Below are positions 2-62,072 of a stretch of DNA of 64,000 nucleotides, piece after piece. The notes below the pieces were generated by a model, which was not told the DNA's origin, did no database searches, and saw only the letters and a list, made by a program, of their open reading frames with translations. The first letter of the stretch is position 1. The number at the start of each line of letters is the position of its first letter. A program made the position numbers and the translations under genes. This DNA comes from Euglena gracilis (lineage: Eukaryota): positions 25,556,954-25,620,953 of the forward strand of contig CP154954.1 of NCBI GenBank assembly GCA_039621445.1. The letters are read 5' to 3'.

Positions 2-4466
<4,465 letters not shown>

Positions 4467-7094
4467 GTGGACCTGGAGCCCCCGGGAACACTACGGGGGG
4501 GGGGGGCAGAAATCTCTTTGATTTCAGTGACCCAGGGGGGGGGGGTTCACCTCTACCCCCTCCCTGGAGGCGGGGATGCTTTTTTTTCCAGCGCAAAGCA
4601 CCGAAAAAAACCCAAATTTTGGGGTCAATTTGGCCCCCAAAAGCGAGTCCCCCCCGTGCCCAGGGTTTGATATAAGGAGGGCGTACATGGTTTAGGTGGG
4701 GGGGGGGTGTCCCCCCACCCCCCCTCCTGGCCCGCAGGGGGGGGGGTCCCGACCACCCCCCCACCTGTCCTTATATCAAACCCTGCCCGTGCCCTCTCAC
4801 CCGTATCTTCTCCCCCACTAGCAGGAAGGAGGATGGCTGGGTCCGTCCCCCCTCCCTGGGCAGGGCTGTACACCCCCCACCAGGCTTTCTCGTATTTCCG
4901 GGGGTGCCAATTTTTAGGTCAAAATTTTATTCGGCGCCAAAGGAATTTTCTTTGCGTGGGTGCCATGGTGGGGGGGGGGGGTCCGACCACTTCCCATCCA
5001 GCCCTGCCCCTGGGTGCCAAAGGAAAGCCTCTGGGGAGGGGTCGGCCACAGCCCCCCCCCCCCAAGGACATTCTCGTCCCACCCTGGGGAAGACAAGCGC
5101 AGCCTGTCCTCCGTCCAGTCCCCGACGGGCGAGCCCGGGCAGTGGACCCGAATGGGCAGCGGCTGAGGGGGCAGGGCGGACTGCCTGGCCACTGTGAGGC
5201 CGCCCCCGCGTGTCAGGGGGAGGCGGGCGGCCCAGGCAGCGATGATTGGCGCCGGAGGCGGTGGCTCCCGAGGGCTGCCTGTCTGACCCCTCTGCGCGTG
5301 TGTCCACGCGTCATGACCCTGCACTGGTCCCCGCAGCAGGCTTTTTTGAATCCTCCAAAGGGCGGTGGTCCTCATACCGTTTGTTTGGAAATTTTCAGCC
5401 AGCCCGCAGGGTTTTACCCAAGATTGGACCCAAGGAAAGGATTGGTTGCTCCGTCCGTCGAAACCAGGATGTCGCTTAAGCCGGAGCAGGGGGTGTTGAA
5501 GCTAGCCAGCAGCCTTTTTCCAGCCTCTGACCCCCTTCCCCCTATGGACGTTTTTATTTGCGTTTATTTATTGGACGGCAATGGATCTTTCGCTTTCGGA
5601 GGTGCAAGAATGGGTCAAAAATGGGCGAAATTGGGTCGGAAGAGGGCTGGCCAGTGCAAATTTAGGGTCAAAAAATGATTTTAACAACCGGTGGTTTTGG
5701 GGGCATTTCTCAGTTTCGATTTTTTGGGTGGAAACCCCTCTCCTGGCCCGAGGGGAGTGACTCAAAGCGCTGGAGGGGCGGTTTGAGTTTCTGTTTCCCG
5801 GCGCAAACCATCGCATTCCCAGACCCACCCCGGTCCAAAACGTGCCCCACGGGGCTGCGGTCCCCCCCCTCCTTTAAAGGAGGAAACAAAAGGCCCCACA
5901 ATGCGCGTCATCCCGTCCCACCTTCCAAACCGACCGCCCGGCCGCAGGGACCCCAGGGTCCGCCAAAGGAAGCCTGCCCACCGCCGCTGCACTCCGCCCC
6001 GGCTGTCCCTGACCCACACCCACACCCACACCCACACCAGGATTCCATTTAAGGGTTCACAGTGCCTCTGGGGGGGAGGGGGGGCTCGCCTGCAGGTAGT
6101 CCAAATTTGGTCAGCGGAAATGCTAGTGGACCCCGGGAGGGTCTGCCTGAAGCTATCGAGTGGAAAGTATTTTTCTCCGGTTTTTTTTGTCCCAGTGACC
6201 GGGGCAAAGCTCTGTAATTTTTTTTCATCCCCAAAACATGTGCAGCGAAGGGCAAAGGGTTGTTCCAGGGTGGTCCCCTGCCAACCCTCCCCTTGACCGT
6301 AGGGGTTCAGGACCACCCCCATCTGATTTTATGAACAATTTATGCCCTTACCTTGGTGTCCCCTTTGACGTCATGTCAAACCCTGCTCCCGGGCCACAAT
6401 TCCTCACTGTCTGTGGCTGAGGGGGCGTGTCCCTGCATCTGCCTGTCAACCCAGAGGTGATGTGCCTGTCTCTCAACCCCTGTTATTGCCCTGGTGCCAT
6501 GCTATGCCCCCGCGTGCCCCAGGCTCGGTTCCATCAAAGCTCATTCATATGTGGCCACCGATTTGTGGAACACTTTCCTCGCAACTGCTACACGTAATTT
6601 ATAAGTGCTGGCTGGACACACAAGTCCACCAACAATTATTTGTCTCGAATTCATGTCAATTTTCTGCTTTTTAATTTCAAAAATTGCAAATATGGCCATG
6701 GTGAATTTCCGGTCAGAAATTTTGGTGCACAAGGAATTGTGTGGTGCTGTGGTGGGTTGCGGGTCGAACCCAGGCTTCGAAATAAGGTGGTACAGGGTAT
6801 AGGTATGGGGGTGCCCCCCCCCCTACTGGAGGGGGTTCCTAATTTTAAAGGTTTGAGAAAATTTGCTTAAAATATAGTTCCTGGACTGGACCCCCAAAGC
6901 AGTCCAGATAAAAATGAAGAGCGGTGAAATGACGAAGGAAAATGTTATCCCCTCGGGCCTGGGCCAGAACTGCAGGTAAGGCCAGCCTTGGGGAGGGGTT
7001 TGCATGTTAAGAAGTTCGGCAGACCAAGCGCAAAATAGGTCTACTCTGGGGCCAAGGGGACATTTTTATGTAAGGAGGCGGGGGGCCAGGCGGC

Positions 7095-7197
7095 ACATAC
7101 ATACATACATACATACATACATACATACATACATACATACATACATACATACATACATACATACATACATACATACATACATACATACATACATACA

Positions 7198-7231
<34 letters not shown>

Positions 7232-7695
7232 CATATACATACATACATACATACATACATACATACATACATACATACATACATACATACATACATACAT
7301 ACATACATACATACATACATACATACATACATACATACATACATACATACATACATACATGCATGCATGCATGCATGCATGCATGCACGCATGCATGCAT
7401 GCATGCATGCATGCATACATACATACATACATACATACATACATACATACATACATACATACATACATACATACATACATACATGCATGCATGCATGCAG
7501 ACATGCATACATACATATATACATACATACATACATACATACATACATACATACATGCATACATACATACATCCATACATACATACATACATACACGCAT
7601 GCATACATGCATGCATGCATACATACATACATACATACATACATACATACATACATACATACATACATACATACATACATACATACATACACACA
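7095..7695. repeat. (TACA)n / (TGCA)n tetranucleotide microsatellite
   Basis: Directly visible. Confidence 0.98.
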
Positions 7696-10600
7696 TTCCT
7701 GCATACATTGATTTTTTTTCGCAATTCTAGCATCTATCGCCTGCTCAATTTCGGACCCAGGAAGCACATTGTTTCTAAATAAAACCTCCCTTGGATGGTG
7801 GCTCCTCTAAATTTTTTGGAAAGGTTTGGTGGGGGAAAGTGAATGGGACGGCAGTTTTTGGGTCATTTCGTCTCATTTTTGTTTCTTGCAATTTTGTCAA
7901 GGTTGTGCTTGCTGTATGGGTTGGAATTGATTCCTATTGCTGTAAATACAGTTTTGATGGGGACAGATCTATCAAAGAGGCTCGTTTGTCGACAGTGTGG
8001 ATTCATTTCCTGGCCAGATTGGCACGTGCGTCCCAATTTGCACTGTTAATGTCCTGCAGCAATGCAACCTTCCCCCTCGCGCATCGAGTTCATGGGTGTG
8101 GCCCCTCTTTCCCTGATCCCCCAGGTTTTGGGAGTCACTACCCCCCCCAAAGGTTTCCACCTGGGTGAAATGCACCTGTTTTTCAGGCGATTTTTTTCTC
8201 GGTGGCTCACTGTCCCCTTAATTGGGCTGTTGTAGCCAACGTGGCGTCCTAAAGCGTCCCCAAAGGCTGTTGGATTGCCCGGACCAATGAAATGGGTGGG
8301 CAGGGGATTTCTTAAGCTGGAGGGGACCCCATCCCCGGGGGGTTGAGTGAAATAAAGTTGGGTCCAGCCCGGCCGGAGGCCGGGCCAGCCGGCCGCAGGC
8401 TGGCCAGCCAATTGGGCTGCCCAGCTCACCTATCCCTGCATTTTTTCCCCTCATCACAGCTTCCTTCATCACAGCCTTGATCTAGCTCCGTCCATCAAAT
8501 TTTCGAGAAGGCAAAAATGCTTTATAAAATTTTGTTTTCCATCTACCCAGCCCAGCCCACCCCTCCAGCCCCAGACCCCCCCTATCCCCCGGGTGTGTCC
8601 AGCCAGCCGCTCGTAGCCAGCCAGCAGCCTTTTTGTCAGCCCGAGGCTGGACCCCCCCGGGGGGGGGGGAGTCCTTAAGAAAGCCCCTGTCTGCGGGGGG
8701 ATAAAAATTTCGGGGGGGAATCGACAATTGCAGTTTTCCCACAATTTCCACATTTTTCTGCATCCTCGATGCTCGGTTTTTTCTCTTTCCGAAACTTTTT
8801 TCGCATCAACCTGAAATGGCAGACAAAACGAGTTCCAGTCATTTCTTGAACACTTCACAATGGAATTCAGGTGCTTTTTTACCATTTTGTCACAAGATCT
8901 GCCAAAATTCTATGCTGGCAATTCCTTGGCCTTTATTGGGTATTTCCCCAATTTCTGCTGGGAAATAATTTCGCTTAAAAAATTCGCATCCTGGACCAGT
9001 TTTTTATCTGGGGTCAAATTTTTCGTCATTTTTTTTGCCGTTTCCGTTTTTTTTTTTAGCCATCTTATTCCATCTTTTTAAAGTCAGTGTGTCCCCAAAA
9101 ATAACAAAAATTGTGTTTTTAATATTTTTATGTTGTAAAAAAATTAATAACAGCTCAAAACATACACCAATGCTCAAAATGACAAAAATTGTGAAACTTT
9201 TTTTCAAGTTCCTTCTGGCAGAAGTGTGCATATTCCCAATATTGCCATTTCCACAATTTTCCTGCCATTTTCTGCAACTTTTTTCCCCGAAGGCCATCAA
9301 TTTTAGTCCCCCCCCTTGTTCTGCAGTGCACTAGAAACACCCCCACCTTGGGGGTATGACTGAGTTGCTTCATGGGCTGCGAGTCAGGGTCCGATTAAAA
9401 AGAAGGCCTCCCCCCTGCCCGAGAGTGTTGGCAGCCAGGGGGAAATTGTCATTTTTCAAACTCCAGGGGGGTGTTGGCGGTGGTGCTGTTGCAGAAACCC
9501 TGGCATCAAGGCCGCCAGGGTCTGGTCATTGTAAGTTTTTTTCCCCCTGCATCAGGCCCAATGCCGGCCTTTGGGAGGTGTCTGCTACCTACCCATGCCT
9601 TTGTCTCATTGCCCCCCCCCCCCCCCCCTTCCCCCCCCCCCCCCCCCCCCCCCCGCCCCGGTTGTTGTGGTGAGCTTGACCCCCAGCCAGGCCTTGCTGA
9701 AATGACCCAAAATGGCCTGAAATTATTTTTGACCCCCTGTAGGGGGGGGGGTCCTTAATAATGACTTTGAATGGCCTGAAATTCCTAAAATGGTCCAGAA
9801 TGGGAGACATTCTGCTGCACAACGTTTTTTCTGTGAGCAACGGGAGTCATTGGGGGTCGTTCGGGTGGAGATTTCAGTTCGGTGCCTTTTATGGATGTGG
9901 GCAGCAAACGGCGGAGTTGGCAGACGATGGCGGAGGAGCAAGCACAGTCCCACAGGGCCCATTTCTGATCCCAAATAACAATTACGTCCCCAAATCCACA
10001 ATCCCCAGCCATCTCAGCCGCCACCTCCCAGCCCACAAACCAGCCCCTCTGACAAATGAACAATACACATTCAACGCCCACTTGTGTGAGCAGGCTTGTG
10101 CTCAGTCGGGTGCCTACCCCACGGGGGGGGGGTGCTAGGGGCAGGCACCCCATAGCACCCCATCCGACCCCCCGGGGGGCAGGGTTTGGGGGGGGGGCCT
10201 GCCCATAGCAGGCACCCCCCTCCGACCCCGGTGCCAAAGGCGCCGGGGGCCCGGAAAAGGCCATTTTCAATGAAAAGTTTTCTTGGACCCCCCCAACCCC
10301 TACCCCCGGGGGGGGGGTGCCTGCTAGGGGTACCCACCCACCCCCCTCCCATGTGTGTGAGGATACTTGCCTTTGTGATGCCCAATTTAATCCAATGCAC
10401 TTTTTCTGAAACAGAAACATCAGCAACAATGCAACCAGGCAAAAAGGCCTAATATGGCCTAACATGGATTAAAATGGCTTAAAATGGCCCAAAGTGTCCT
10501 AAAGTGAGATAATTTTGTGGCTTGAAAATTTTTCATGATGAATCAAATGTTATTGATATGTTTACAATTTCAAACACCTGAAACAATTTTTTGACCTACT

Positions 10601-16547: not shown

Positions 16548-17416
16548 AGTGAACAACTCATGAACAACGACCACCCCACTATAACGACCACCCCCTGGTC
16601 CAGGTTTCAGGTTAGGGGGGGTCTAACGACCCCCCCCCCCAGGGGGTCACAGGTTGCAGGTACCCCGTTGTATGACAAAGGGGGGAGGTACCTCCCACCC
16701 TCCCCCTCCCCGGGGGTTCCTGGTTATGGGAAGAAATTTGCCAAGAATTGCCCTTTTTCCGTGACCCTTTTTGTTTTGTTGTGCTTTCGAACCTTTTGGC
16801 AACCATTTGGGAGGGCAACAATTTTTCTTGTGTGCTAGGAAACAAACTTGGCTCAAAAGTTTCACTTTTTGGCATTTTCTCTCTCTATGATTTATCAAGG
16901 ATCTTCGTCATTTTTACCAGCTTTTTTTGCCCTTCTGAAATTTTTGGGTGAGCAAACTGTTCAAACAGGGTGATGACAAGATTTTAAGGGCGATCCACTC
17001 TATGATTTTGCTTTTTATCAAATGATTCCTCTCCATTAGGGTTGGCTGCCCAGAGGGTTTCATGAGGAGAGGTTGATCGGTCGCACAGAAAACAATTTTT
17101 TCTTTTGGCGCTTTGCGCCAGAATTTTGTCAAAAGAATGTGCAAAGAATCGGCATAGATTGGACCAATTTGCCCAAAGAAAAATCGGTTCGCTCAATCAG
17201 TTTTCTCTCCTGCTTTATGTATGTATTCTTATTCGTTTATTTATGGATCTTTTTTTCTTTTATCTACTTATTCATTCATTCATTCATTCATTCATTCATT
17301 CATTTTATATATTTATTTATCTCTTTATTTTATATATTTGTGTTTGTTTCAGTGAAGGAGGATTATTGAGCAACTTGTTTCAAATTTGGACCCAGCTGCA
17401 AGAACAAGTAATTTAT

Positions 17417-17417
<1 letters not shown>

Positions 17418-17455
<38 letters not shown>

Positions 17456-17548
17456 GGGGTGGGGGGGCGTGTGGGGGGGGGGGGGTTGGGGGTTGGGGTG
17501 GCGGGGGGGGGGGGGGGGCGGAGGGGGGGGGGGGGGGGGGGGGGTGGG
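17418..17548. repeat. Long poly-G tract
   Basis: Directly visible. Confidence 0.95.
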
Positions 17549-20500
17549 CCAGGGTGGGTGGATCCACGACAGTTCTGCGGAGAGCATAATGTACAAGGAA
17601 TTTTTAGGGGTAGGGTGGGCGGGTCTGCCGAGACCCCTCTCCCCGGAGGTTACCCCCAAGCAGCCAGAGGCACCACCAGTGGGGTTTTCGCCATCTTTGT
17701 TCTTTTTTTTTGGCACGAGGTGCCAAATTTTTTTGACCCCAAAGTTGACCCCAAAAAGCGGGAATCCCAGCTTTTAGGTTCATTTAACACATGTGCATTG
17801 CGCGTTGTGTGGGTGTGTGATCACTCCCCCCCCCCCCGGGTGTTGGTGGTGGTGCTGGTGGTAGTGGCTGCGGAGTCTTGTTGCTGTTGTTGTCGTTGTT
17901 ACGCCGTTGTTCTTGTTGCACCATGAATCCATACATTGTCAGGTCTTTTTTTTTTAAGGAACAGGGGGATCGGTTGTCCACCCACCCCCCGGGGGAGGGG
18001 GGTCTGGGGACCCTAACCAACCCACCCACTCTCGAAAATCCACCCCCACCACCACCACCATTGGTAACAATCACAGTTTTGATCAACGTTGTCCTTATCA
18101 AAGAATCCTGTTTTCTACACAGGATTCTTTTGACCATTGGTACGACAGGGCGCTTGCCCCCCCCCCCCCCAGGGCGCTTGGCTCCCCTCCTCCTCACATA
18201 CAAACTTGGCCCCCTAAGGTTGGGAAGCAGGTGTTGCCATCATCTTAACGTAATTGAATTTGAGAATTTTTTCGCCGAGGGAACTCTCTTTTCCAAACCT
18301 CACATTGTTTTGATATCTCCACATCCAAGTTTTCTTTTCTCCCTCATATTAACCCGTTTTTTTTATGTTTTTTGGTTTTCTTGCAACCGATATAAAAAAA
18401 TGAGCATTGCAGGCTGATCCTGCACTCAGCAAAGGAAGGAGTGGAGCTTTGGGGGATATCTCCTCCCTCGCAGGCAAGGGCACGCCGTCATGTTTGCGGC
18501 AAAAAAAATGTTGCAAGTATTTTGTTGCACGGGCAGCTCCATGGTCTGCCCTTATCTGCCACTCCTCTGCAAATCTCTACTGGCATACATTTCCTCAATG
18601 GCACTTATTTGAATCACAGGTGCAAGTTTCACCAAGTCCACCGTCTGCCAAGGGGAGGTATAGCACTGTTTTTTTTTTGCATTTGGCAGTGTGCTAGTGA
18701 CAGCTGCAGCGTTGGTACGGAGGAAGGTCTTTTTTTTGGACACATGTTGGAACCAATTGTCCAATGTAACTGACCCAGGATCCACAGTCCAAAATCAAAA
18801 TTTTCTGGATATTTTTGTCTTCTCCTGTGCATTTCACATGTTAGGGTTCGCCCGACCTTTGCCAACACAGGGATTTCTGAACCTTGAATCAGATTGCCAC
18901 CCTTGCCCCAAGGGCACCCTTTTTTGTGGCATATGCAGCAGCAACAAGGACTGTCTGCCCGGTGCCCATTGCACTGGACGCTGCCAGCCCGCCTTCCCCA
19001 CCCACTGTGTGGATGGCTCACACCCATGGATTCATTACAAACCTGCGTGACCCCCCCTGGGGGTTTTCCAAGAGTGGGTGGGTGGGTGGGTTAGGGTCGC
19101 TGGACTCTCCCCCCCCCCCCAGGGGTGGGTAGGGCAGTTGTTCAGATTTTTGCCCACCGAATGTCGGCCGGAAAATTTCGGCCGATTTTGGCTGGGTTTT
19201 GAGTGGGTGGTTGACCCGCCTGGGGGGGGGGGGGTCGTGGGTGGGTGGGTTTCAAAAAGCTGATGGGTGGGTTGCGAGAGTTCCAGAGACCCCGGGGTAA
19301 ACTGAGTGAATCTGTGCTCACACCGATGTGGCTCCGTGCCGTTTTGGACAGCAACCTGCAACCGGAAGTATTCAATTTGGCTTCCCCAATTTCTCCCAGA
19401 AGCAGCATCCTAACGCCTTAGAAAGCTGCGAGGTGGGGTTTCCTTATTTGTCACGTTAGGAAGAGAGGTCGGCTTCCTACACCCAGCCAGGGTGAAGGAA
19501 GGTGAGCCCCCACCAGAAAGTTGTCTTCTGAATAATGCAACCAGAAAACATGCGTGGGTCCAAGGGCGGAGTGTAACCCACCTTCGGACTCTCCTCCCAA
19601 TCTCCATAGCTTCCTCTGGGATTTGATTTTTTGGTGTTTTTATGTTTCGCCTGGCAGGGTGCAAATGCACATTTTTGCAGGAGTCTTCTCTTTTTTTTTC
19701 CGTGCGAGGTAACGTGCCCCAATCGCAGGTGCAAGGTCATAATGTGGACTGCCACGTTATGACCGCACACTGAGAGTTGGTGAGAGGAAGCTGGTTGTGT
19801 AAGAGGTTTGATGCCACCGACGCTTTCACTCAAACGAGTCGCAAGGTCGCAAGGCGCGCAGGTTCGCTGGGCTGGTTTCTCTCTCTATATGCCCGATCTA
19901 CCCCATCTTCATCCAGATCCACGCGTTGTGAATGGCCGCTGTAGATCGACGGGGGTTGGTGTGCTCTTTAAAGGGCCTCTGGGAATACGGGGGGTGGGGG
20001 CAGGCAAATGGACTGACAGGAAACAGAGGTTGGCTTCTGCTCCGTTGCCCAGCTCAGCCTGTCTGGTTATTCATTTTCTTTTTTTTGTGTGCAAGAACCA
20101 GGCCAGGGTTCGATATAAGCGTTTGGTGGAGGGTGTCCCCCCCTGGACCAGAGGGGTGGTCCGGACAGACCCTGGGGGGGGGGGGCACCTGTAACCCCCC
20201 AAAAGGTCAAAATTTTCCCTGGCATTTTGCGCCAAATTTTTTTGCATTTTTGACAATTTTTTGTCAAAGAGTGCCCAAAATGGCATTTATGGCCAGTTTG
20301 GGGGATCAAAAATTTTCGGCCCGGCGCTTCGGCCAAAAATCGGTCACTGGACCGGCCACTGTTTAGGTGGGGCCCCAGGCATTATTAATTACTTGACGAT
20401 TGACGATTTGTTCTTTTCGTGGCACGCCTTTTTTGAATGCCCAGTTCTTCTTGTGTCACAAAGGGTGCTGAGATCTGCGTGAGATGTGTCGCCCTCGAAC

Positions 20501-24581: not shown

Positions 24582-28679
<4,098 letters not shown>

Positions 28680-30417
28680 CCGCCGCGCCTTCCGCTCGCC
28701 CTTCTCCCGGTGCCCTGGACCGCCCCTCCGCCTCTCTCGGGCATGCCCCGTCCTTCCCCCGTTGGTCCGCACTTAGGCGGCCGGATTCGCATTTAAACTT
28801 TTTTATGTTGATTTACGCATTTGTGCAAATGTGCGAATGTTTTGATTTCGGCTGTGAAGGTCAGGGGGGTTTGTGAAAACACGGCGACCAGAGAGTGCAA
28901 AAAATGAGCAAAATTCTGTCTTTGACGGCACGACCTCTGGGAAAAAATGGTGGTTTTGGGTGGTCCGAAAACGGGCTTTGCACGTCAAAACCCCTGGACC
29001 TTCCCTCCCCCCGGAAGCGAAAACAACACAAAAAAGCGACACAGGAATGGGACCTTTGCTGCCCTTGTTGCTCTTTTCGGCTGTCTCCCCGGGTATCCCC
29101 GAGCTGCCGGCAGTGTGTGTCCTGGGTGTTTGCCGGACTGCTTTGCTTGCGGCGCCTTGGTGTGGTGTTTTTGGTGTGTTTGTTGTTGTGTTGGTGCGTG
29201 CATTTGCGCAAATGAACACAATTTTGCCCTTCAAGGATTGGGCTTTGGCGCCCTTCAATTGACGCTGTCGATAAACGACGTGGCATAGGGGCCGTGACAG
29301 CACGGACCAGAGGGCCGTCCGGAAACATGGTCGGTTTGCCACACTGTTTGTCGACGGCGCAAGTAAATGCGCGCATGAACAAAAATGTGTTTATGCGCGC
29401 AGTTGCGCCCATCAACACAATTTGTGTTGGTGGGCGCAAATGGGTGCATAGACACAAAGAAGAAGGTCGTGACAGACACACAACCGTCAAACACCGGCAG
29501 CAGATGTGGTTCATTTGCGCATTTGCGCACATCGCATTTTTTTGTGGTGCAAATGCGCAAATGAACCGCATGAATAATTTTGTGCAAATTGCATCTGGTT
29601 CATTTGCGCATTTGTGCCCACAAAGAAAGTGATGCGCGCAAATGCGCAAATGAACCATCAATGGAGGAGTAAAAAGCGGCTCCATTTGGCCCTCCAACAG
29701 CTACCCTTAGTGGCTTCTGAATGGGTTCAACCCAAACAACCGCACCGTCTTCTTCAACGTCAGGTATTAGGGGTTAATTCTACTCTGGTGACAGGAAAGA
29801 TAGAGATAGAGGATCTCCTGAAGGTGGGTGCGCACCCAATAACGGCGCACGTCTGCTGGCACCGGTTTTAGGATCCCAAGGGCCCTGCCACTAACCAGCG
29901 GCCTGGGCTCCGCTGCTGCAGCCACATCAGCTGCCGGGCACCCACCAGACCGGAATCAACCTCCCCGATGCAACAACACCCAGCTTTAGCGACCACGTTA
30001 TTCCCCGCAACCGGGGCGTTAGACTGGTCTGACGACGTGGTGTTAGTGCGTGGCAACCGGCAGCCGGAGAAAGGTAGCCCTGAAGCACCCCATTACTTTG
30101 GGCGAAGTGGTGAACCTTTACCAATGGCTTGGTTGCATGAAAGCGGTTGGACTTGCTCCCCACAAGTTATGCACAAAAATTGGTGTGTTTTACATTTGTC
30201 GAGGGGAAAATGATGGAGAAGAACCAGAAAACGGACCCCGGCCCGAAACATCCTGGGTATTTTTTTTTCAGGTGCCAAATTTTGTCTTCTTGTGACGCAG
30301 CACTGTTGCAGGAAAGGTGTCGAACAGTCACAGGTCGTTGCACGTCATCAATTCATTACATTTAGCTTCCAGGCGAATGAGGCCAAAACAACCGGCCTTG
30401 TGGGCCGGGGAACAGCA

Positions 30418-30849
30418 GTACCCCCCCCCCCCTATGTCCAACGACCCCCCTATGTCCAATGACCACCCCCCCGGTCAGAGGACACCTTTTCGGAGGTTTG
30501 ACCAAATTTTTGGTCCCGGTGTGAAGCGCCGGGACGAAAAATTTTGCCCAAAAATTGGCCAAAAATTTGGCCAAAGTGCCATTTTTGACACTTTTTTTGA
30601 CAAAAATTTGTCAAAATTGCCCAAAATTTTCAGCGCGAAGCGCCGGAAGGGAAAATTTGGGCATTTTTGGGTGGGTTGGGTACTCATGGGGAAATTGGTG
30701 GGTACCCGGGTACCCACCAATTTTCTTTTGACCCCATGTCCAACGACCGCCCCCCCCCCCGGTCAGAGGACACCTTTTTGGTCACTACCCTATGTCCAAC
30801 GACCCCCCCCCGGTCAGAGGTTACCGGTCATTGGACATAGGGGGGGTAC
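30418..30849. mobile_element. MITE nested in the cargo element
   Basis: TIR GTAC(C)nTATGTCCAACGACC / GGTCATTGGACATA(G)nTAC; internal repeats ccccggtcagaggacacctttt. Confidence 0.8.
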
Positions 30850-30873
30850 AAATGTACACACGTAAATGCGCAC

Positions 30874-31535
30874 TGGCGAGAGCGGAACACAGCATTTACA
30901 AGGTACGTTGTGTCTGAACAAGCGAGCAAGGTTGACAGAGATGAAGAAGATACATCAGAGTATTCACTGGGAGAGTACGAAGTCGATCAGCAAGTCGATT
31001 GCGTACTGTACGAAAGAGGAAACCAGACACGGTAATCGACATGGCTGAAGAGCTTGACTTGACTGCGCCCTACGGCTGGCAGTTGGCGGTGATGAACATC
31101 ATCGCCAGGCCTGTATGCAAGAGAAGCATATACTGGTTTTGGGAACCCGACGGCAACGTTGACAAATCGGAGCTTTGCAGTTGGCTGGTGGCTAAGCATA
31201 ATGCACTCATGCTTTCGGGGAGACCAACTGATATGTATCATATGATATCCAAATTTCCGAAAAAAAGGAAGCTCATGACTATCGATCTCCCAAGATCCGC
31301 ACGAGAGTGTGTGAATTATGAAGCTATCGAACATATCAAGAACGGCCTAGTATTTAGTGGTAAATATGACAGTTGTCAGGTACAGTTTAACAGACCTCAC
31401 GTGATAGGCTTTTCAAACACAAAACCATTTACACACCAGATGAGCACAGATAGATGGTACGTCATCGATATCAGAGAACTCATGAAGAACCCGAAGTCGC
31501 ACGACGAAATAATTCAACGTAGTAAGTTAGCTTAA
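30874..31535 (+). pseudogene. rep: CRESS-DNA virus replication initiator (HUH endonuclease + SF3 helicase), 5'-truncated and frameshifted
   Basis: Motif II GTQHLQG and motif III YCTKEETR in ORF 30866-31048; frameshift at about 31031-31036. ORF 30999-31535 has YGWQ, Walker A GNVDKS, Walker B TIDLPR, IKNGLVFSGKYDS, motif C VIGFSN and arginine finger DRW. Motif I is absent. Confidence 0.95.
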
Positions 31536-32121
31536 TAGTTAGATCAAAAGAACTGTTGGTAGTATCAGCAGTAGCTACATAGGGTATAATATAACACATA
31601 TGCGCTAGACTCTCATCGTATCGTATCGTGATGCAAACTTATCAGATGTCTTCACCGTCATAGGTTTCTCACCGGTAAGCTTTGACACAGACAGATAACC
31701 AGTCAAACGCAGACTGCTCTTATTTCCTAAGGAGTTACTTCCTCGAACCCATCGGTTATTTTTCTTCTCCATGGCTAGCTCAAGCTGAGTATCAGGATCA
31801 TTTACATGACTCAAACGAACACCGAGCCAGAGGGCTCTCTGTGATTGACAGCTGGTGCACGAAATATCGTATTTGATTCCAAACACTCTGTATCCCAGAT
31901 AGAACTGAGGCATCCATTGATCGAACAGGTAGGCTTGATGACCATTGCCATCAGTGCGTGGCATGTAAATGGACGTCTGGTACTGTAAGCCCGAGTTGAT
32001 TATACTGGAATTCGCAACGTAGTGTTGGATGTCGACATAGTTGAGTTTAGTGAAAATCCTATCAGGAAGGCCGCGAGTAATATATGAGGTAGATGGACGT
32101 GCCGTAACCTTACGCCCGAAA
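31480..32121 (-). pseudogene. cap: CRESS-DNA virus capsid protein, 5'-truncated and frameshifted
   Basis: GLPDRIFTKLNYVD..SIYMP..GHQAYLFDQ..YRVFGIKY pattern seen in unclassified CRESS capsids. Removing one of three tandem ACGAT copies (about 31615-31629) restores ...RYDESLAHMCYIIPYVATADTTNSSFDLTIKLTYYVELFRRATSGSS* ending at 31480. Convergent with rep, with 3' ends overlapping by 56 nt. Confidence 0.88.
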
Positions 32122-35100
32122 GTGCAAATGCGCACACAAACACACCTATCACGTTCAAAAGCCTCGTAGGTCCGTGGGAATAATCAGTGTGTTTTAAGAC
32201 AGATATGTTGTTCGTTGCACGCCATTGCACAAACCATCCACATACCAGTTTCCCCAAGACGTTGGTGCGCACAAATGCGCCCATAAACAAATTATGTTTG
32301 TGCGCTCATTTGCGCCCACAAACATGTATTTTTACCTTCAACGTTTTGCATTTTATTTGTGCAAGTGCGCAAATAAACATATTGTGTTTATTTGCGCAAA
32401 TACGCGCATAAACACACATCAGTTGCATGACGGCTGACGTAGTCTGTAGCATCTGATCTAATAAGGCTCCGTGTGTTCCTACGGGCGGCTGCAGTATCCA
32501 AGCCAGTTCAGGCTCCGTGACAGCACCAGTGCCAATAGTCGTAACAGTGGGTGTGTGCTTCCAACCTGTTTGATGCACGAGAGCACCAATCTCTCCCTCC
32601 ACCCCCTTCACGTCATTTGGTAAGCGGCATTTGCACCAAACCTCCTGGAGTTGATCCCCTTCAACACAGGGTTGCCGCAGTTCATAAACTGTTTTCCGTC
32701 TGTCAGGGTACAGGGTCCCAGAAATTCCGTAAAAATTATAAATTTGCGCAAATGCGCCCATTTCAAAGAAAAAAACCCTCGAATCCTGCCGCCTAAGCCG
32801 CACCCACCCCGCCCCCTCCCTCTCGCCTCCTGCGCCGCCCGCTCCTCCAATCGCATGCACAGCTGTCTCAGCCGCACCTCCGCGGCCGCCATCCAGTGGA
32901 ATCCGGTGGACGTGCAAGTCAGCCCTCAGCCTCAGCCCATCGCCGGGCAATGTCGTTCCATAATTTTGTGGTCTCAAAAAAATGGGAGGGGAGTGAGGGA
33001 GGGAGGAGGGAACCCGACGTGTAGGGGGACGTGTGGTAGGGAACGACGTGTAGTAGGGAACCTGACGGGTGGGGGGTCCAGCCAGACACAACTCTCCAAC
33101 AATCTCTGGGCCCAGACAATGGCAACCCCCCCCTTCTTCGCCGAGCCCCCCACCCACCGGCAAAACCCGGGCTGAACCGAGAAATTTTTGGTGCAAGGCG
33201 CCGAAATTTTTTAAAACGGGGTCCAAAGTTGCTTCAAACAACGGCATTTTTGGGTCGTTTTCGGATTTCAAATTTTGGATAAAAAAATGCCAACTGGCTG
33301 GGTTTGGGCTTTGGGGGGTATTTTTTGGGTACCAGCCGGGCCCAGCTCCCAGCCGGCCGGACCCCCCCCCCCGGAACCCTCCAGCCAGCACCTTTTCCAG
33401 CCGGTCCGCGGGACCCCACCCCCCGGGGTGCTTAAGAAAACCCCCAGTGGTGGCTGGCTGGCCGACCGGGTGGGTGCCAAAGCGGACCCCCTAGGTCGTG
33501 AGAAAGCTTGGCTCCTCACGCCCGTCGGGTTGGCTTCCCAACCCAAGTCACCCCATTCCTCCTGGGAAGGAATGGAGGGGGCGGCCCCCGGCTCTTTTCG
33601 ACGCCCCTCCCCCCTTTGGGCCGCGCCTCTGCCATGTGTGCCTCTTGCCTGTCGGGCTCCCGCCCTTGCCCCCGTCCCCCTCTCCCGGCTTGCCCAGTTT
33701 GGTCCGTGTGCTCGCTCTGGCGCTCTGAAGCGGCTGCGACGATCGGCGGTCGGAGGCGGGGGAAGGTTCTGGGTGGGGCCGGGGCTGGAAGGAATCCCTG
33801 GACCCCTATGGTGGTGGGCGGGAGCACACAATCACTTGGTCATTGGCCAACCCCCCTGAGGGGTGGGTGACTGATTTTTTTTCCAGATTTGATTAATGTT
33901 TTTTTTGGCCCGGTCGACCCCTTCCCCTGAGGGGGGAGGGGGTCGACAGAAATCACTTAAGTGGACAGGCATCGAAGGCGTGGAAAAATTCCTCACCCAC
34001 AAAAATTTTTGTGTCCAAAATGAACTGGATTACTGTACCACAATTTCAGCCCTAGGTGGGGTTCATAGAATCATAATTTGGGTTTGTCTTTTGTCCCAAA
34101 TCTGCATCAATTGAAACAGTTGCATGGTGAGGGTGGACCCCTGTCCAGGTCGGTGGGACGCGGTCCAACCCCCGCTTCCCATTTTTCTGAGCCGCCGGTT
34201 TTTAGGTCAAATCTTTCCTCGTGAACCGCCATACGGTGGGTGGGGCCGGCTTTCCGGTACAGACAGCGGTGGGTGGGGCAAACGCCTGTGCGCACGTCGC
34301 CCAAGACCGACGCCCCCATCCTCCTGGGTGGCCGTCCGTGCGTCTGTGTGGCCGCCGTGCCCCCCGCTCTGTCGGGCGGCGCGGCTTCCCCACAGCCAAG
34401 GTTCTCCTGCTCCCCATCCGGCCGCGTGTCCTTCCGACTGTTCTGTTGGGGGATTGGGGCATTGTCTGTGAATGATTCTCTGTTGTCTGACACCCTTTTT
34501 TGAAGAAAAAAAATCATCCTTGGTGATCTTTGTCCAATTTATGCGAGCGGCCGAGCTCAGGTAACGGCCGGGGGCGGTCCCTACCGAAATTTCAAACTGC
34601 CACATTACGCCTCCAAGCTACGGCTGAGGCATTTGGTTTGTAACGGCGTCTTGTTTGATGCCAAAGGTTCCATGAAGCGATGGCCGCACAAACGCCTTAT
34701 CCCAACCAGAGTAATGGTCCCCAAAGCACGACTTTCGTCGCACTCCTAATTGCAGGGCAGTGTTGGCGGCGCCAAACCCTTTTTGCTTGTCCCCCGCCGC
34801 CACCGCCCCCCCCCCCCTGCCTCGGACTGCCTGGCCTCCCCGCGGCCGGGGTCTGGGGCCGGCCTGCCACACTCTGTCCCACCCCTCGGCCAGGCGTCCA
34901 GATCAGATTTTTACCCAAGAGCAATTTGCGTCACATTTGAACATTTTCCGATTTTTTTGCCAACAAATTCCATACATTTGGCATCAGTATGTACAAAAAT
35001 CACAAAAAACCTTGGTTTGAGACTTTTTTTGAAAAAAGGAAAATGCGAATGCCAGTTCAAGACGAGCACCAATTTAATTTGCATAATGGGAAAGACCATC

Positions 35101-49789: not shown

Positions 49790-50438
<649 letters not shown>

Positions 50439-51807
50439 TACCCACCATCCACCCCCCTCTCCCCACCAAACTCAACGTCTTCTTATTTTAGATTTTCGCT
50501 TGGTCGGCCCGGGTCTTATTTTTGTGGGGTCTTATTGGGGGGGGGGGGCTTATTTTGGGGGGGGGGGTACCCAAAATGAGATTTTTCGATGAAACTTCAC
50601 CAATTTTTTAATTTTTTAAAGTGCCAAAAATGTGGTAAATGTCAACTTACACCAATTATGAAAAAAAGATGTTTTTTTCTCAGCCCGGGTCAGAAGAAAA
50701 AATCCAGGGAATAAGACCCCCCTGCAGGTTTCCAGCAACCCAAAAACAAGGCCCAGGCCGTATTTTTTGGGGGGGTCATGGGCCTCTGCCACAAAACGCC
50801 TGACATGATCTGATTTTGGGAGTTCCGCACGTGATGGAGGGGTCCACCCGGGCTGGCTGGGTGGGATGGACCTTCCCTGGGGGTCTTTGAAAGAAGCCTG
50901 CAGTACCCCCCCCCCGGGGGGGGGGGGGGGTGGACTGCAGCTGGTCCAAATTTGGCCAGTGGGATTTCTAGCAGACCCCCCCGGGGGGGCCTGCTAGCAG
51001 GGCTAGCTAGTGGAAATTTTTTGGGACCCCCCAAAAATGGCCAAAAATGCCCACTTTTGGCCATTTTCGGGAATTTTTGGAACAAAATCAGCCAAAAACC
51101 CATTAAAAGCCTCATTTCCACCTCGGCGCTGCGCGCCGAAGGAAACCCCCGGACCCCCCCCCCCCCCCGGGGGGTCTAGCTAGCCCATTTTTTCCAGTGT
51201 CCAGCCGATTGGCTAGCCAGTACTCCCCCCCCCGGGTCCTTAAGCAAAAGCCTGGCCTTCACACAGAAGTATTTTGCATCTTTTTCAATTTTTTAAATAT
51301 TTTATTTTTTTTGCATTTTCCTCCTACGGGTTTTCAACATAAATGTAAACCAATAGATTGCCTCAGAAAAATTTTCATTTTGACTAGATTTTCCCCCGCA
51401 ACCAATCTCGGCATAATTTTTTTGTGATTGTTTTTTATTATCAAAATGGTTTCTTTGTGTAATCATAATAATTTTTCTTTTTTTGTGTCGCCTTGGGACA
51501 GGGTTATTTTTTTACTGGTAACCCTTGTTTAAGGACCACCTTTATCCAAATGGCTTCCAACGGCCGGTCTGGATCTCGGATGGGTGAAACATTAAAACCA
51601 CATTTTTGGGTGTTTTTGGTGGATTGGCGATGGTCCAAGGGTGCTGGAAATCAAAATTTTCCAACGACAACCTGTTTTCACCAGAGAATTTTCTCATTTT
51701 TTCCCTTTTTTTTCCCCTGTGGATGCTCAGTTGAATGTGGGTATTCTGAGTGGTTTTTATTCCCACTTATGGACCGCCCTTCTTCTTCTTCATCCCCAAG
51801 GGTCCCA

Positions 51808-54120: not shown

Positions 54121-56210
54121 GGCGGCGCATCTCGCACTTAAGTTTTTTTTGTCGATTTTCGCTCATCGACCATTTTTTTATTTGGGTGCTGGCGTTACAA
54201 GGGGAGAGAGTGAGAGGCAGCAGGATAGGAAAAAATACGGGCGATTTCTCATTTTTGGCACCGGCTCTCCTGAGAATTACGCTTTTTTGCTGTTTTTTTT
54301 TGGTGGTCGGAATGACACGAAAACCCCCGGACCTGTCCCCCCAAAATGAAAAACACCGACAAAAGCACCAAAATGCCGGTACCGCCTTCCCCCTTTTGGT
54401 GCGATGCGACTCTCCTCACTGGTTCAGCCATGTTTTGAACAAATAAAGCAGGTCGATGTGCGCAATTGCGCACATCGTCCATTCGATGATTGCCTGAAGA
54501 ACGTCCATAAATGCTCCAAGATTCATACTTTTGAAAACGGTGGGTCAAATACCGTGAGTTTGGGGGCGAAGATGAGATCGGTTTGTTGGAGACCCTGGCT
54601 GGCTCCCTCCAGGGGTTTTTGACGCACTTTTCTTGTTTTTGCCGGCCTAAGACTTTTGTTCGTTTGCCAGAGCGCGGAGAACAAGCATGGGGGGTAGGGG
54701 GGCTCCAATCACGCCGCCGGCCCGTGCAGAGAAAGTGGTTTGAAGGGGAGGGATGGGTCGCGAGTCCCCACCGAACTTGCAGTGGGATGCGTCCGGCCAA
54801 ATTGTATCGTGATGAAATGGGAGAATTGATGACACAGATTTCACTGGAATGATTTTTTTGTTGCGCAAATGCGCACATTCGACAACGTGTGCGCATTTGC
54901 GCACACCAAACTCATGTCCCTTTCCATGAAGCGGGAACGGGCCTCGCTGATTTGAGCTTTTTGAAACAAACAATAACTGAAAGAGCTTACCATGCAGCTT
55001 TGCTCTGAAAACAGACAGAAATACACTAGAAGCATCAATTACCAGGTCGGAATTAAAGAAAAAGTGGTCGGTTTGCGCAAATGCGCACGTGGTCCGCATT
55101 TGCACACTTTCAAACACCGACCACATGTGTAAAGGTTGACGTTGTCGGAGTGCGAAATGGGCACACCATGATAACGTGCGCATTTGCGCACACCAACCAC
55201 GATAGCAAAATTCAGACAGAACACATCAAACACGACCCCAAACACCACCTGTAATGGCTCCTTCGGTGTGCAACTTACTCAGCTGCCAAACGCTCTCCTC
55301 AACGATGAGGCTGTTTTCAAGGCCAATTCTGGTCCAGTGACAGGTCCAGGTCCATGTGGAGACCGTAGACCTCTGGTAGGTGGTCCGCCGCTCGCACGTC
55401 ACGACACACGTGCAATGACTCTGCTTGGGGTGGCCCTCGAAAACCCCCGCCACTTGCCCCCTGGCTTGCGTTTTGCTGCACCAGTCACATCAGCTGATGA
55501 TAGCTGGTTGCACTTAAGCATCCACCAGGCCGTCATGAACCCCCGGTTCAGCAGCAGCCACCGACGTTGTGGAATTGGATCCCCATTCAGACAATCAAAA
55601 AAAACCAAAAAAAAAAAAGAATAAAAAACAAACAAAATAAAAAAAAAAACACAAAAAAAAACAAAAAAAAACCAGCCGGGACGGCAGACTGGGTGGGCGG
55701 GCAAGCTGCTAGTCCATGGAAACAATGGAAAATGGGGCAACTCATTCTTTTGGAGGTAGAGAATATTTGATGTTTACACCTGGTTGGGTTGCGTGAAAGT
55801 ATTGGGACTCAGCACCCTTGTTTTTCTGAGGGAAAAATGAGGCATTATTATTGTGGCAAAAACAGAAAAATTGTCCTGGCCAAGGCGTCAGGAAGATTAC
55901 ATATGCGTAATTTTTGAGATTCTGGAAGTCGTTATTTTTTTGAAGAAAGGTGTCCAGCAATCATGGGGGGTTACACATCATCGATTCCTCCCCGCAATTT
56001 CCAAACTGATGGCACGAAAACGATTGGTCGTACGAGTTGGGGATCAGATATGCAAAATTTGCCCTTGGAGAGGACAATAATTCTCCTGTCATATAGTGTG
56101 TTCCACTGCACGTTACGCATAACATAGAAAAACCAAATTTTCTTCACCACACAATATCTTCAACACAATAGTTTGCGCACACAGTGGTCAGTGTGCACAA
56201 ATGCACACGT
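54121..56210. mobile_element. Second member of the TGCGCAAATGCGCA cargo-element family (right end not found)
   Basis: Left end TCA|GGCGGCGCATCTCGCACTTAAGTTTT resembles TTA|GGCGGCCGGATTCGCATTTAAACTTTT at 28776; motifs and hairpins at about 54458, 54862-54903, 55073-55106, 55150-55192 and 56173-56208. Confidence 0.6.
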
Positions 56211-59778: not shown

Positions 59779-62072
59779 ATGGGCTGCACTACCTCCGGGG
59801 CCACTGCCGTCTCGCACGCGGCGGGGCTCCTGGCGACGCCGGCCGCCTCGCCCCGGCGGCCCCACCCCTCCCCATCCGCCACGGCCCTCGCCCGCACCCC
59901 CGCCGTGTGGCCTGGTATGTATGTATGTATGTATGTACGTGTGTATGTATGTATGTATGTATGTATGTATGTATGTATGTATGTATGTATGTATGTATGT
60001 ATGTATGTATGTATGTATGTATGTATGTATGTATGTATGTATGTATGCATGTATGCATGTATGTATGTATGTATGTATGTATGTATGTATGTATGTATGT
60101 ATGGATGGATGGATGGATGTATGGATGGATGTATGGATGGATGGATGTATGGATGGATGGATGGATGTATGTATGGATGTATGGATGTTCATATCAGAAC
60201 ATACATTCTGGTTTTCTCATTTTTTCCACCATTCAATTCAACTCAAGACGGTCGAAAAACTTTTGAATCTTTCGAAGCATTTCGCTTCATCAGTCCTCCA
60301 CAGTGGGCCGATGTTTGGTCGCCACATCCAGACCACAGTACCTGGAGGGTGTCAGCCTCTGCTGCTAGGGTGTGCATGTATCGCACTGCCCCCACCGCTC
60401 CACTCCAACACCCCCTCTGAGTCGGCGTTCGATAGCCTGGGGGAGCAAACCGAGGACGAGGACTCCCCCAGCCAGACCCCTCCCGCCCTCCCCTCCGTGC
60501 CGTGGGCTCTTCTGGTTTTGCATGTAGGCGAGGTAATGAGAGGTTTTCACCGCACTTCTATCACGGGTGTCTCTTGCTTGGCTCTAGTGTGGCTGACGTT
60601 CAATACCTGCACCCCCTCCAGGACGTGCGGAGTACGGTGGGCCGACATATGGCCGGACCACAGTCACACTGGTCAGGGGTGACCAACATGACACCGGAAT
60701 GTGGCTTACCCCCCTCCGCCCCCATGCAGCCCTACGGCCACGACGATGGGGGGCTCTGCGGCCGACAGCCTCCGCACGCTGTCCGACGTGGAGGTGGGCA
60801 GCAGCGCCTCCACAGTCCAGCGCAGCCCCCGGCGGCGGCCGCGCCGCAACGTCCCGCTGAAGTTCCGCGTCCGGGCCAGCCCGGTCTCCCCCCGGCCAGC
60901 GCGGGACCCGCCGCCCACCCCCCGGCCCGCCGCCATGGGCCACTGCGCTCCATCCCGCCCATCATCCGCCCAATATGGCATTTGGGTCAGCCATGCCACT
61001 GTTTCGGTGGGGGGGGTACCCCAGCCCCCTTTTGACCGGGGGGGGGGGGAGGGGTCCGACCCACTCCCCCCACCTGCCTTTTTGTTGAGCCCTGTTGGGG
61101 GGCTGTGCATGGGCCAGTTTTCCAAGAAAGAATAAATGGGAGAGTTGGTTTGGGAAAATTTCCCCCTGGGTCACCAGCGAATCTATGATTGAAGCCCAGA
61201 TGCAAGAACTCACACACATCTATTTGTTTTGTCAGTCGTTTAAGTCACCCAGGTTGTCTTATATTCATTCAAATTTCTTTCGCCTCTTGGGAAGTTGGGT
61301 GAAAAAAAATAAATCCCAAATTTCGCTGCCCAATCCAAGGTGGTTTGTCTGTTCAAAAAGGAAACCATTTTGAGGAATTTGATTTGTGCCGGGAAACAGC
61401 GCTCCTGGTTAGTTTATCGGATGACAGCGGTCAAAAGAAAATTTTCATTCCTTGAGATGTGTCACTGGCTGCAGCCCAAGGGGGGGGGGTCTGTTTGGGG
61501 GGGGGGGGGGGAGGCACCTGAGAAAGCTTCAGGGCAGCTTCCTCCGCATTGACGGGAACCTTCCTGCAGCCTTGTTTTTTTTGGTTTCGCTTCCTGCACA
61601 GCAGATTTTAGCTTTTTGCTTACCTTTCAGGTGCCGACCCCATCTGGGGGGGGAGGTGTGTCTGCCTGGGCAGGTACTCCAAGGCACTCCATATCCGACC
61701 CCCCCGGGGGGGGTTGGGCACTTGGCCAAAAGTGCCTAACAGGCACTCGGGCGCTGAAGGCGTCGGAAGGCTCAAAACAGGCCCATTTTCAAGGAAAATG
61801 GCCTATTTTCTGAGGAAAGTTCTTGGGCACAGGCCGAAATCCAACCCCCCCCCGGGGGGGGGATGCCTGCCTGGGACTCCCCCCCGGGTTGGTAAAAAAA
61901 ACAGCCTGGGTCACGCCGGCGTGGCCCATCCCCCAACCCCAGCCGCCCCCCGGGGCCCGTCCCCCTGCCGCGGACCAGCCGCGTGCACCCGCTGTTCCCC
62001 CCGCGGCCGGCGTGCCCGTACCAGGTGGGCCCGGGGGGCCGCAAGTTGCCGCAGCTGCAGTGCGGCATCTGA
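59779..62072 (+). CDS. 4-exon gene for a ~184-aa protein of unknown function with an N-terminal MGCxxS acylation motif (paralog B)
   Basis: Exons 59779-59901, 60344-60469, 60764-60931, 61935-62072: MGCTTSGATAVSHAAGLLATPAASPRRPHPSPSATALARTP|GGCQPLLLGCACIALPPPLHSNTPSESAFDSLGEQTEDEDSP|DSLRTLSDVEVGSSASTVQRSPRRRPRRNVPLKFRVRASPVSPRPARDPPPTPRPA|NPSRPPGPVPLPRTSRVHPLFPPRPACPYQVGPGGRKLPQLQCGI*. Confidence 0.75.
59902..60343 (+). other. Probable nonconventional intron
   Basis: CCC|GCCGTGTGGCCTGGTATGT pairs with ACATCCAGACCACAGTACCT|GGA; Y|R borders; in frame (an in-frame GT-AG alternative, 59915-60368, also exists). Confidence 0.6.
59915..60187. repeat. (GTAT)n followed by (GGAT)n microsatellite
   Basis: Directly visible. 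Confidence 0.98.
60470..60763 (+). other. Nonconventional intron with the CAG/CTG signature
   Basis: CCC|AGCCAGACCCC ... GGGGGCTCTGCGGCC|GAC; Y|R borders; phase 0; position homologous to 25572-25995. Confidence 0.8.
60932..61934 (+). other. Nonconventional intron
   Basis: GCC|GCCATGGGCCAC ... GTGGCCCATCCCCC|AAC; perfect 9-bp stem from +4 to -6; Y|R borders; restores the frame that matches the C-terminus of paralog A. Confidence 0.75.

Follow-up and report, generated by a model that had tools for sequence, protein, structure and literature searches.

The locus described here raises the question of how a piece of a virus that has no integrase came to lie between two copies of a transposon motif, and whether the motif had any part in its capture. 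The locus is in a 64,000-nucleotide stretch of Euglena gracilis contig CP154954.1 (positions 25,556,954 to 25,620,953, hereafter the window), where an element with terminal inverted repeats (TIRs) at 28772-32797 encloses remnants of the replication (Rep) and capsid genes of a circular Rep-encoding single-stranded (CRESS) DNA virus. The first-pass annotation, made from the sequence alone, had proposed that both viral ends stop exactly at a repeat motif of the element, and that the motif directed the capture, either site-specifically or through microhomology. We find that the locus is an endogenous viral element (EVE), in which virus is joined reproducibly to host DNA on both sides, and that the 10-nt repeat flanking it is not a chance match. 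On balance we favour capture of an origin-less linear viral fragment by end joining at a break within a run of the motif, the duplication being made by repair.

The 10-mer AAATGCGCAC is present as two exact plus-strand copies, at 30864-30873 and 32126-32135, as first annotated. The window has six exact copies in all, the remaining four being at 54867-55185. When one mismatch is allowed there are 21 matches against 4.6 expected, a number reached by none of 100 shuffles of the window. The repeat shared by the two junctions is exactly 10 nt long, the adjoining bases being different on both sides, and its sole extension is a GT two bases further left, which with a 2-nt gap gives 12 matches in 14. 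Directly abutting 10-nt repeats of this kind (offset 0-6) are found at none of the 2777 other positions of the element once the viral piece is removed; over the whole window abutting tandem 10-mers amount to 2.2%, all of them in microsatellites. Among the matches listed, the other array copies of the motif within 28000-35000 differ by one base from the two junction copies, which are in direct orientation and do not fold (z -0.7 and -0.6). As the element has no such tandem 10-mers outside this place, the duplication probably dates from integration.

To locate the ends of viral similarity, 211 homologues were aligned to the window using tblastn, which gave 57 Rep alignments at the left end and 183 capsid alignments. 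On the Rep side, 52 of the 57 start at almost the same place (29 at 30872, 21 at 30875 and 2 at 30878); two more start at 30881 and 30884, and one starts at 30866, this being P0001, another copy of the same fragment. The last two extend further left, to 30761 and 30812, of which the longer is spurious, as it crosses a stop codon and sits in a transposable element nested at this place (see below). The homologue P0006 shares the residues TGESGT with the window from 30872. Judged from the alignments, the Rep breakpoint and the end of the motif are no more than about one codon apart. The capsid side is less sharp. Here 51 of the 183 alignments start at 32069-32072, which is the first conserved core, and the best HMMER matches reach query residues 5-9, corresponding to 32109-32123. 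A further 12 of the 183 pass the motif to 32138-32180, by way of arginine-rich low-complexity sequence. Capsid similarity thus appears firm to 32072 and is plausible to about 32121. Taken over the 211 homologues, viral similarity neither carries on past the motifs nor ends well short of them, and the proposal that both viral ends lie at motif copies stands, with a precision of about 50 nt at the capsid end.

The left part of the fragment belongs to a Rep gene. Positions 30866-31048 match positions 32-82 of the 82-position profile of the Pfam family Viral_Rep (PF02407), with E 1.2e-9 and 38.7 bits (cutoff 26), and contain Rep motif II, HLQG, at 30893-30904 and motif III, YCTK, at 31004-31015. 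As annotated earlier, the HUH motif I (of FTxNN type) is absent from the locus: the Rep alignment begins after the residues F31, T32, N34 and N35 that are invariant in the relatives, and the rest of the window has no N-terminal piece. In the relatives, which have 262-290 residues, the start of the window's Rep corresponds to about residue 60-66, just before HLQG. By this comparison it is a truncated gene and not a member of a different family. The helicase-frame stretch 30999-31535 has 61 homologues, mostly annotated or Pfam-typed as CRESS Rep, of which 58 carry PF02407; identities of the Rep homologues are 33-61%, P0001 excepted (89%). On the strength of these matches, the remnant is assigned to the Rep of a CRESS-DNA virus, with its HUH endonuclease and superfamily 3 (SF3) helicase. 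At the Walker A site relatives have GKS or GKT, with G164 and K165 invariant in 10 of 10; the sequence in the window, at 31143-31169, is EPDGNVDKS. The glycine before the lysine is replaced by Asp in the window and in P0001 alike, which suggests that the replacement is older than the split between these two, or was already present in the virus.

The right part is a capsid gene on the minus strand, convergent with Rep, and the 3' ends of the two genes overlap. Its frame runs from 32135 down to a stop at 31480 and is broken by a 5-nt insertion near 31615 (31615-31620). A word-based search found a single relative, P0062, while a full HMMER scan found 1027, with 190-290 residues and in most cases an arginine-rich N-terminus. 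Searches of Pfam, PHROGs and PDB sequences gave no matches to the capsid. A structure model was built from P0062, a 97%-identical unbroken copy, with a predicted local distance difference test score (pLDDT) of 83.9. Its top Foldseek matches are the capsids of porcine circovirus 2 (PCV2), a bat circovirus and beak and feather disease virus (BFDV), with E values of 9e-8 to 2e-6 and template modelling (TM) scores of about 0.5; the values for PCV2 Cap are E 9e-8 and TM 0.52. The model indicates that the remnant is a single jelly-roll protein of circovirus fold. It lacks the 20-30 or so basic residues of the N-terminus: in relatives 20-35 basic residues precede the position at which the open reading frame (ORF) starts here, and this arm is absent both at the locus and elsewhere in the window, again in agreement with the earlier annotation.

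The lost parts are the 5' end of the capsid gene, the origin-bearing intergenic region and the 5' end of Rep, which together form one contiguous arc of an ambisense circle. With the origin arc and Rep motif I missing, the viral piece would be unable to replicate, as had been supposed. Neither the Rep N-terminus nor the capsid arm was found at any other place in the window, where the best match outside the locus had E 0.002, for one of the 211 queries. A P-loop-like Rep similarity at 9838-9924 on the plus strand (LLWMWAANGGVGR compared with IYWFWEPNGGVGK), found by 15 of the 211 queries at a best E of 0.002, was set aside as probably due to chance.

The nearest relatives of the Rep are uncultivated CRESS viruses, at 55-61% identity. 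In IMG/VR the Rep relatives (loci L001 and L031-L042) have at most 58% identity, and among them L001 and L031-L037 (47-59% against the query A3) carry unrelated capsids. The IMG/VR capsid relatives (L002-L030) have at most 32% identity, and their Reps are distant, at most 40%. The Rep clade and the capsid clade of the window occur together in none of the 42 IMG/VR loci.

The insertion is a reproducible feature of the host genome. The stretch is present in 20 runs from 15 studies, and the left junction is in separately assembled contigs of 3 of 3 DNA runs, X1, X10 and X18, which carry two organism labels (X18 being the second). These contigs span from 30824, 30823 and 30840 respectively to 32049, with 24-41 bases of left flank. 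The right junction is in an X18 contig, 32093-32249, which has 29 letters to the left of 32122, just under the 31-letter rule. In X1, X10 and X18 the viral part has contig depths of 59, 34 and 7, and unique DNA at 32789-33100 has 12-66, 9-17 and 3-5; both flanks of the viral part have 1e4 to 1.9e6. Contig depth is not copy number, but the contrast between viral part and flank is of three to four orders of magnitude, and shows that the insert is low-copy and set between highly repeated families. The viral piece has therefore not been mobilised further, or amplified with the element.

The copy varies between runs. The capsid-breaking 5-nt insertion is polymorphic, being present in X1 and absent from X10 and X18, and the break in the Rep linker frame near 31036 is common to all three. 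Of the in-frame differences between runs, six of seven are non-synonymous. The two frame breaks (one of them polymorphic), the replaced Walker A glycine and the non-synonymous variants suggest that the copy, carried under both organism labels, has been decaying neutrally since integration. P0001 and P0062 are parts of one contig of 1376 nt, with the same first residues as the ORFs of the window. This contig is without two of the lesions in the window, including the linker break, and has a gap of its own, of five residues (GKYDS) downstream of the position of that break. It may derive from this very integration, in a different individual, species or copy. The view that it is a second genomic copy was dropped, since the runs are polymorphic for at least the 5-nt difference. 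In an RNA run (X21, about 5% of the run read) there are no reads on 30863-32146, and no RNA run is listed among those that contain the stretch.

We turn now to the DNA that received the virus. The host element is non-autonomous and about 4 kb long, with TIRs and a 5-bp target duplication of its own (Table 1). Its 18-nt termini in inverted orientation give 2 matches against 0.04 expected, and at the right terminus the contig depth falls from 230,881 (bin 32682-32788) to 42 (bin 32789-32895). Parts of the element have depths of 1e4 to 1e6, compared with tens on unique DNA, and it must therefore belong to a very large family. No transposase was found, there being no Pfam family in the 11 long ORFs of the window, and Rfam had no matches in the window. 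The GCGCAAATGCGC-like 12-mer has 17 matches in the window at up to one mismatch, against 0.28 expected, and 11 of these are inside the element; the motif belongs to the host element. The inverted pairs of the motif form hairpins, five of six tested having z of -3.1 or below with none of 200 shuffles as good; those at 29500-29580 and 29588-29662 have z -6.4.

Table 1. Features of the viral insert and of the element that contains it. Positions are those of the window.
Feature	Position	Strand	Basis or remark
Left terminal inverted repeat, CTTAGGCGGCCGGATTCG	28772..28789	+	CCGCA directly outside at 28767-28771
Left subterminal GCGCAAATGCGC-type motif arrays, mostly hairpin-forming inverted pairs	28800..29660		motif matches
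Nested miniature inverted-repeat transposable element (MITE), TIRs of about 20 nt (CCCCCCCTATGTCCAACGACC), TA duplication at 30419-30420 / 30847-30848	30421..30846		inverted pairs
Host motif-like unit 'a', GTACAAATGTACACAC, then GT	30846..30863	+	13/16 identical to 32122-32137
Left 10-nt direct repeat, AAATGCGCAC	30864..30873	+	sequence match
Rep endonuclease-domain remnant, lacking motif I, frame break near 31036	30872..31048	+	PF02407
SF3 helicase and linker region of Rep, in a different frame	31035..31535	+	61 homologues
Capsid gene remnant, circovirus-like jelly roll, lacking the basic N-terminal arm	31480..32121	-	HMMER, fold search
Host motif unit 'c', GTGCAAATGCGCACACAAACACA, containing the right 10-mer 32126-32135	32122..32146	+	12-mer match from 32122
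Right subterminal motif array	32258..32420		depth 1e5 to 5e5
Right terminal inverted repeat	32780..32797	-	CCGCA directly outside at 32798-32802

The nested MITE ends 17 nt to the left of the left 10-mer. It is Stowaway-like and has the highest depth of the stretch, about 1e6 and up to 1.9e6 in X1 (where the viral part has 59); related pieces are at 15948, 23656, 23772 and 47401. Unit 'a' is outside this high-copy MITE, the unique contigs beginning at 30823-30840. On the right, the family contigs are joined at 32141 with a 20-letter side, which is consistent with a unit that starts at 32122. A second cluster of the motif is seen at 54458-55190 and 56170-56210, as near-perfect inverted pairs; the pair at 54862-54903 has arms of 14-16 nt and z -5.3. 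There is no terminal repeat of the 28772 type near this cluster, so that the motif is common to more than one kind of element or site. The window also has 8- and 9-nt microsatellite arrays at 3636-4150, 7000-7770, 49790-50460 and 59860-60200, those at 7.2-7.7 kb and 59.9-60.2 kb being reverse complements of one another (about 275 nt, 85-89%), and many runs of G and C, for example at 17416-17560.

The two junctions can now be read base by base. At the left the order is GTACAAATGTACACAC, GT, AAATGCGCAC, virus, and at the right it is virus, GTGCAAATGCGCACACAAACACA. The repeat abuts the insert on the left, while on the right four bases (GTGC), which match the host motif, separate virus and repeat: the host unit begins at 32122 (GTGCAAATGCGC), four bases ahead of the 10-mer. 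The viral end does not therefore lie directly at the right 10-mer, as had been thought. The pentamer GCACT is indeed read inward at both junctions, at 30870-30874 on the plus strand and at 32125-32121 on the minus strand, as first annotated. The motif unit, however, opens with GTGC and closes with GCAC, and the GCACT...AGTGC arrangement follows mostly from this symmetry; it is not an independent clue to directed capture. Three readings of the junctions remain. The 10-mer may have been duplicated at integration, or the virus may lie between two older adjacent units, or it may have been copied in by template switching between distant units. The first is suggested by the absence of tandem 10-mers at the 2777 other positions, by the one-base difference of the other array copies, and by their usual inverted arrangement.

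On the account that we favour, the captured DNA would have been a linear double-stranded piece of a CRESS-DNA virus, of about 1.25 kb, from which the origin arc had already been lost. It would have met a chromosomal break in a single copy of the abundant TIR element, at a place where a few GTGCAAATGCGCAC-like units follow one another, and been joined into the break, presumably by end-joining repair of the host. The 10-nt repeat would then be a by-product of the repair, produced either by fill-in of a staggered break (a target-site duplication) or by templated synthesis, at the left junction, of a short and slightly imperfect copy of the adjacent unit. The motif would mark the kind of DNA that was hit, which is abundant and hairpin-prone and perhaps also break-prone, rather than being a recognition site. 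It may still have played an indirect part, if such hairpin-forming arrays are often broken.

Several observations weigh against this account. The GTGC at 32122-32125 completes the host 12-mer and keeps the right-hand 10-mer apart from the virus. For a plain 10-bp target duplication these four bases must then be viral, or filler, by coincidence (about 1-5% by our estimate), and a 14-bp duplication needs a later loss of 2 nt from the left copy. A similar third unit at 30846-30861 is immediately to the left of the left 10-mer; tandem units therefore existed here, and the flanking copies could be separate older units. The capsid-side breakpoint is fixed by homology only to within about 50 nt, and as IMG/VR holds no close complete virus the breakpoints are not fixed at the nucleotide level. 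Neither an empty site nor a virus-free family copy was found; within the window, the viral piece and the junction flanks are not repeated elsewhere. Finally, the unique contigs of X1, X10 and X18 all end at 32049, and there is an extra contig of similar depth from about 31914, possibly because a second locus or a divergent haplotype shares the 5' part of the capsid gene. Over 31914-32049 the extra contig reads G and not C at 31934.

Further searches for the undisturbed site gave the same result. A metagenome scan with the 20-mer of the right junction returned 14 loci, all of them unrelated CA-rich chance matches; the ORF spanning the right junction, searched as protein, gave no candidate for an empty site or family copy; and none of the joints listed skips the viral part. 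The 9-mer core of the motif, AATGCGCAC, is absent from all 42 related viral loci, and a second cargo segment bounded by the motif was not identified in the window. The first-pass interpretation is upheld in part. The viral ends are at the motif and the repeat is not due to chance, but capture directed by the motif is not supported in the form proposed: it rests on one event, and in so abundant a family 'directed by the motif' is inseparable from 'landed in the commonest DNA'.

The form in which a role for the motif best survives is microhomology-guided template switching within the transposon, as proposed for Pack-TIR elements under the name of gap filling. A strand would leave one motif unit, copy about 1.25 kb of virus and return to another unit, so that the two 10-mers would be two units of the element and the motif would guide both switches by its repetitiveness and homology. 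We think this unlikely, though it deserves to be taken seriously. Duplication by repair and microhomology-guided switching each fit the data as well as directed capture does, and only switching gives the motif a role. The TIR element that contains the insert has a 5-bp target duplication of its own, and the insert sits on the inward side of a subterminal motif array; host units can be read on both flanks (on the right from 32122, with the further unit at 30846-30861 on the left); the motif arrays fold into strong hairpins; and in Pack-TIRs, as described by Tan et al. (2021, PMC8277862), breakpoints show microhomology and an internal bias. Against this, virus and motif could have in common no more than the AC of the Thr codon at 30872-30873, and the median microhomology given in that paper is 2 bp and not 10. 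There is also only the single event.

It is doubtful, and a little more so, that the arrangement is a coincidence in which the virus landed without duplication exactly between two tandem host units that were already there. A unit is completed where the left flank closes (...AAATGCGCAC), and the right flank opens with a new one (GTGCAAATGCGCAC); on this reading the site before insertion would have been ...GTAAATGCGCAC / GTGCAAATGCGCAC. A third unit directly precedes, at 30846-30861, and in a repeat of 14-16 nt an insertion would be expected to fall on a unit boundary about 1 time in 5 to 1 in 14 by our estimate. This sits poorly with the lack of identical tandem 10-mers at the 2777 remaining positions of the element, and with array copies within 28000-35000 that are one base off and usually in inverted pairs. 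Moreover units 'a' and 'c' differ at 3 of 16 positions, and yet the flanking 10-mers are identical.

A site-specific enzyme is very improbable, whether the transposase of the element or a viral Rep acting on a hairpin that mimics the origin and cutting at the motif. It is true that the motif is over-represented and clustered (17 copies of the 12-mer against 0.28 expected), that it forms hairpins, as protein-recognition sites at transposon ends often do, and that both viral ends are at motif copies of the same orientation. However, neither junction is at the viral origin, and the origin and Rep motif I are both missing; a Rep-catalysed join at the nonanucleotide is therefore excluded for this copy. 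None of the 42 related viral loci contains the core 9-mer, the insert's own inverted repeats are no longer than 5 nt and are explained by the GTGC...GCAC symmetry of the unit, and there is no sign of a transposase among the 11 long ORFs. The viral piece is low-copy and has not been mobilised, and no second motif-bounded cargo was identified.

An assembly chimera or contamination, with free viral DNA joined to host repeats by the assembler, is barely credible: assemblers do err at high-copy repeats such as those on both flanks, but the same left junction is in contigs of three DNA runs under two organism labels, the right junction is in one contig, 20 runs from 15 studies have the stretch, and the copy has lesions and is without an origin. 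Two other ideas were rejected. A retrocopy mediated by a long interspersed nuclear element (LINE) would leave a poly-A or A/T run, and there is none at either end; with genes on both strands, the insert is also no copy of a single mRNA. A defective circle integrated by a single crossover at the motif would need its deletion junction to coincide with the crossover, and would be a circle without an origin.

It is worth considering what the locus means more generally. Endogenous CRESS- and circovirus-like fragments, some of them in transposons, are already well known, and this fossil stands out for how clean its scar is. Few endogenous fragments of single-stranded DNA viruses have clean junctions, and such junctions are the sole record of how a virus without an integrase entered the germ line. 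The locus offers a sharp Rep-side breakpoint, a flanking duplication and a defined host context, namely a hairpin-rich transposon. It also documents a CRESS lineage whose Rep clade and capsid clade are not paired in the viral contigs searched, and ties this lineage to a host. More speculatively, and we would not put much weight on it, the hairpin-forming GCGCAAATGCGCAC arrays could be hot spots of breakage and template switching that trap extrachromosomal DNA, including that of viruses, by homology to the motif. The element would then be a recurrent collector guided by the motif, in effect a Pack-TIR whose donor is a virus, and this locus one of many captures in the genome with the motif at their ends. 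Should further captures of this kind exist, the element would exemplify the acquisition of foreign DNA guided by repeats; as the evidence stands, the locus is one more viral fossil.

The proposed capture has parallels in known systems. End joining captures extrachromosomal DNA at double-strand breaks, with microhomology and templated filler, as in the integration of transferred DNA (T-DNA) and in repair by polymerase theta. The present case is similar in that the ends are lost, that there is a slightly imperfect copy of neighbouring sequence at the junction, and that no recognition site is seen; it differs in that the pathway is proposed from the scar alone. In Rep-dependent integration, DNA is inserted at origin-like sites, as for adeno-associated virus (AAV) at AAVS1 and for geminivirus-related DNA in Nicotiana, where junctions are near the origin. 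These cases share with ours a single-stranded DNA virus with an HUH Rep in a chromosome. Their junctions, however, are at or near the origin or nick site, while here both the origin and Rep motif I are missing.

Among EVEs, Liu et al. (2011, PMC3198968) describe CRESS- and circovirus-like inserts in host genes and transposons, including a Rep gene inside a fungal element with TIRs, and a geminivirus-like transposon at which they found no target-site duplication. Theze et al. (2014, PMC4231630) likewise found no obvious target-site duplications at their EVEs, and duplications flanking such fragments are as a rule not observed. The present locus is like these EVEs in being a truncated and degraded single-stranded DNA virus Rep in a host genome, here together with a capsid gene. 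It differs from them in its sharp junctions and its exact 10-nt flanking direct repeat, and also in that both genes are kept in their native convergent arrangement, with exactly the origin arc missing.

The closest resemblance is perhaps to Pack-TIR and Pack-MULE elements. Tan et al. (2021, PMC8277862) report 370 animal Pack-TIRs, mostly single-copy, which they attribute to gap filling. Microhomology is found at one or both breakpoints in 67.6%, with the median noted above, and breakpoints are skewed to internal regions, where the authors suggest fragile sites. The EVE described here similarly consists of foreign DNA within a TIR element that has its own target duplication, is low-copy, and has internal breakpoints in repeat-rich, hairpin-prone DNA. 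It differs in that the donor is a virus and not a nearby host gene, and in that the flanking repeat, at 10 nt, is longer than the median microhomology of 2 bp.

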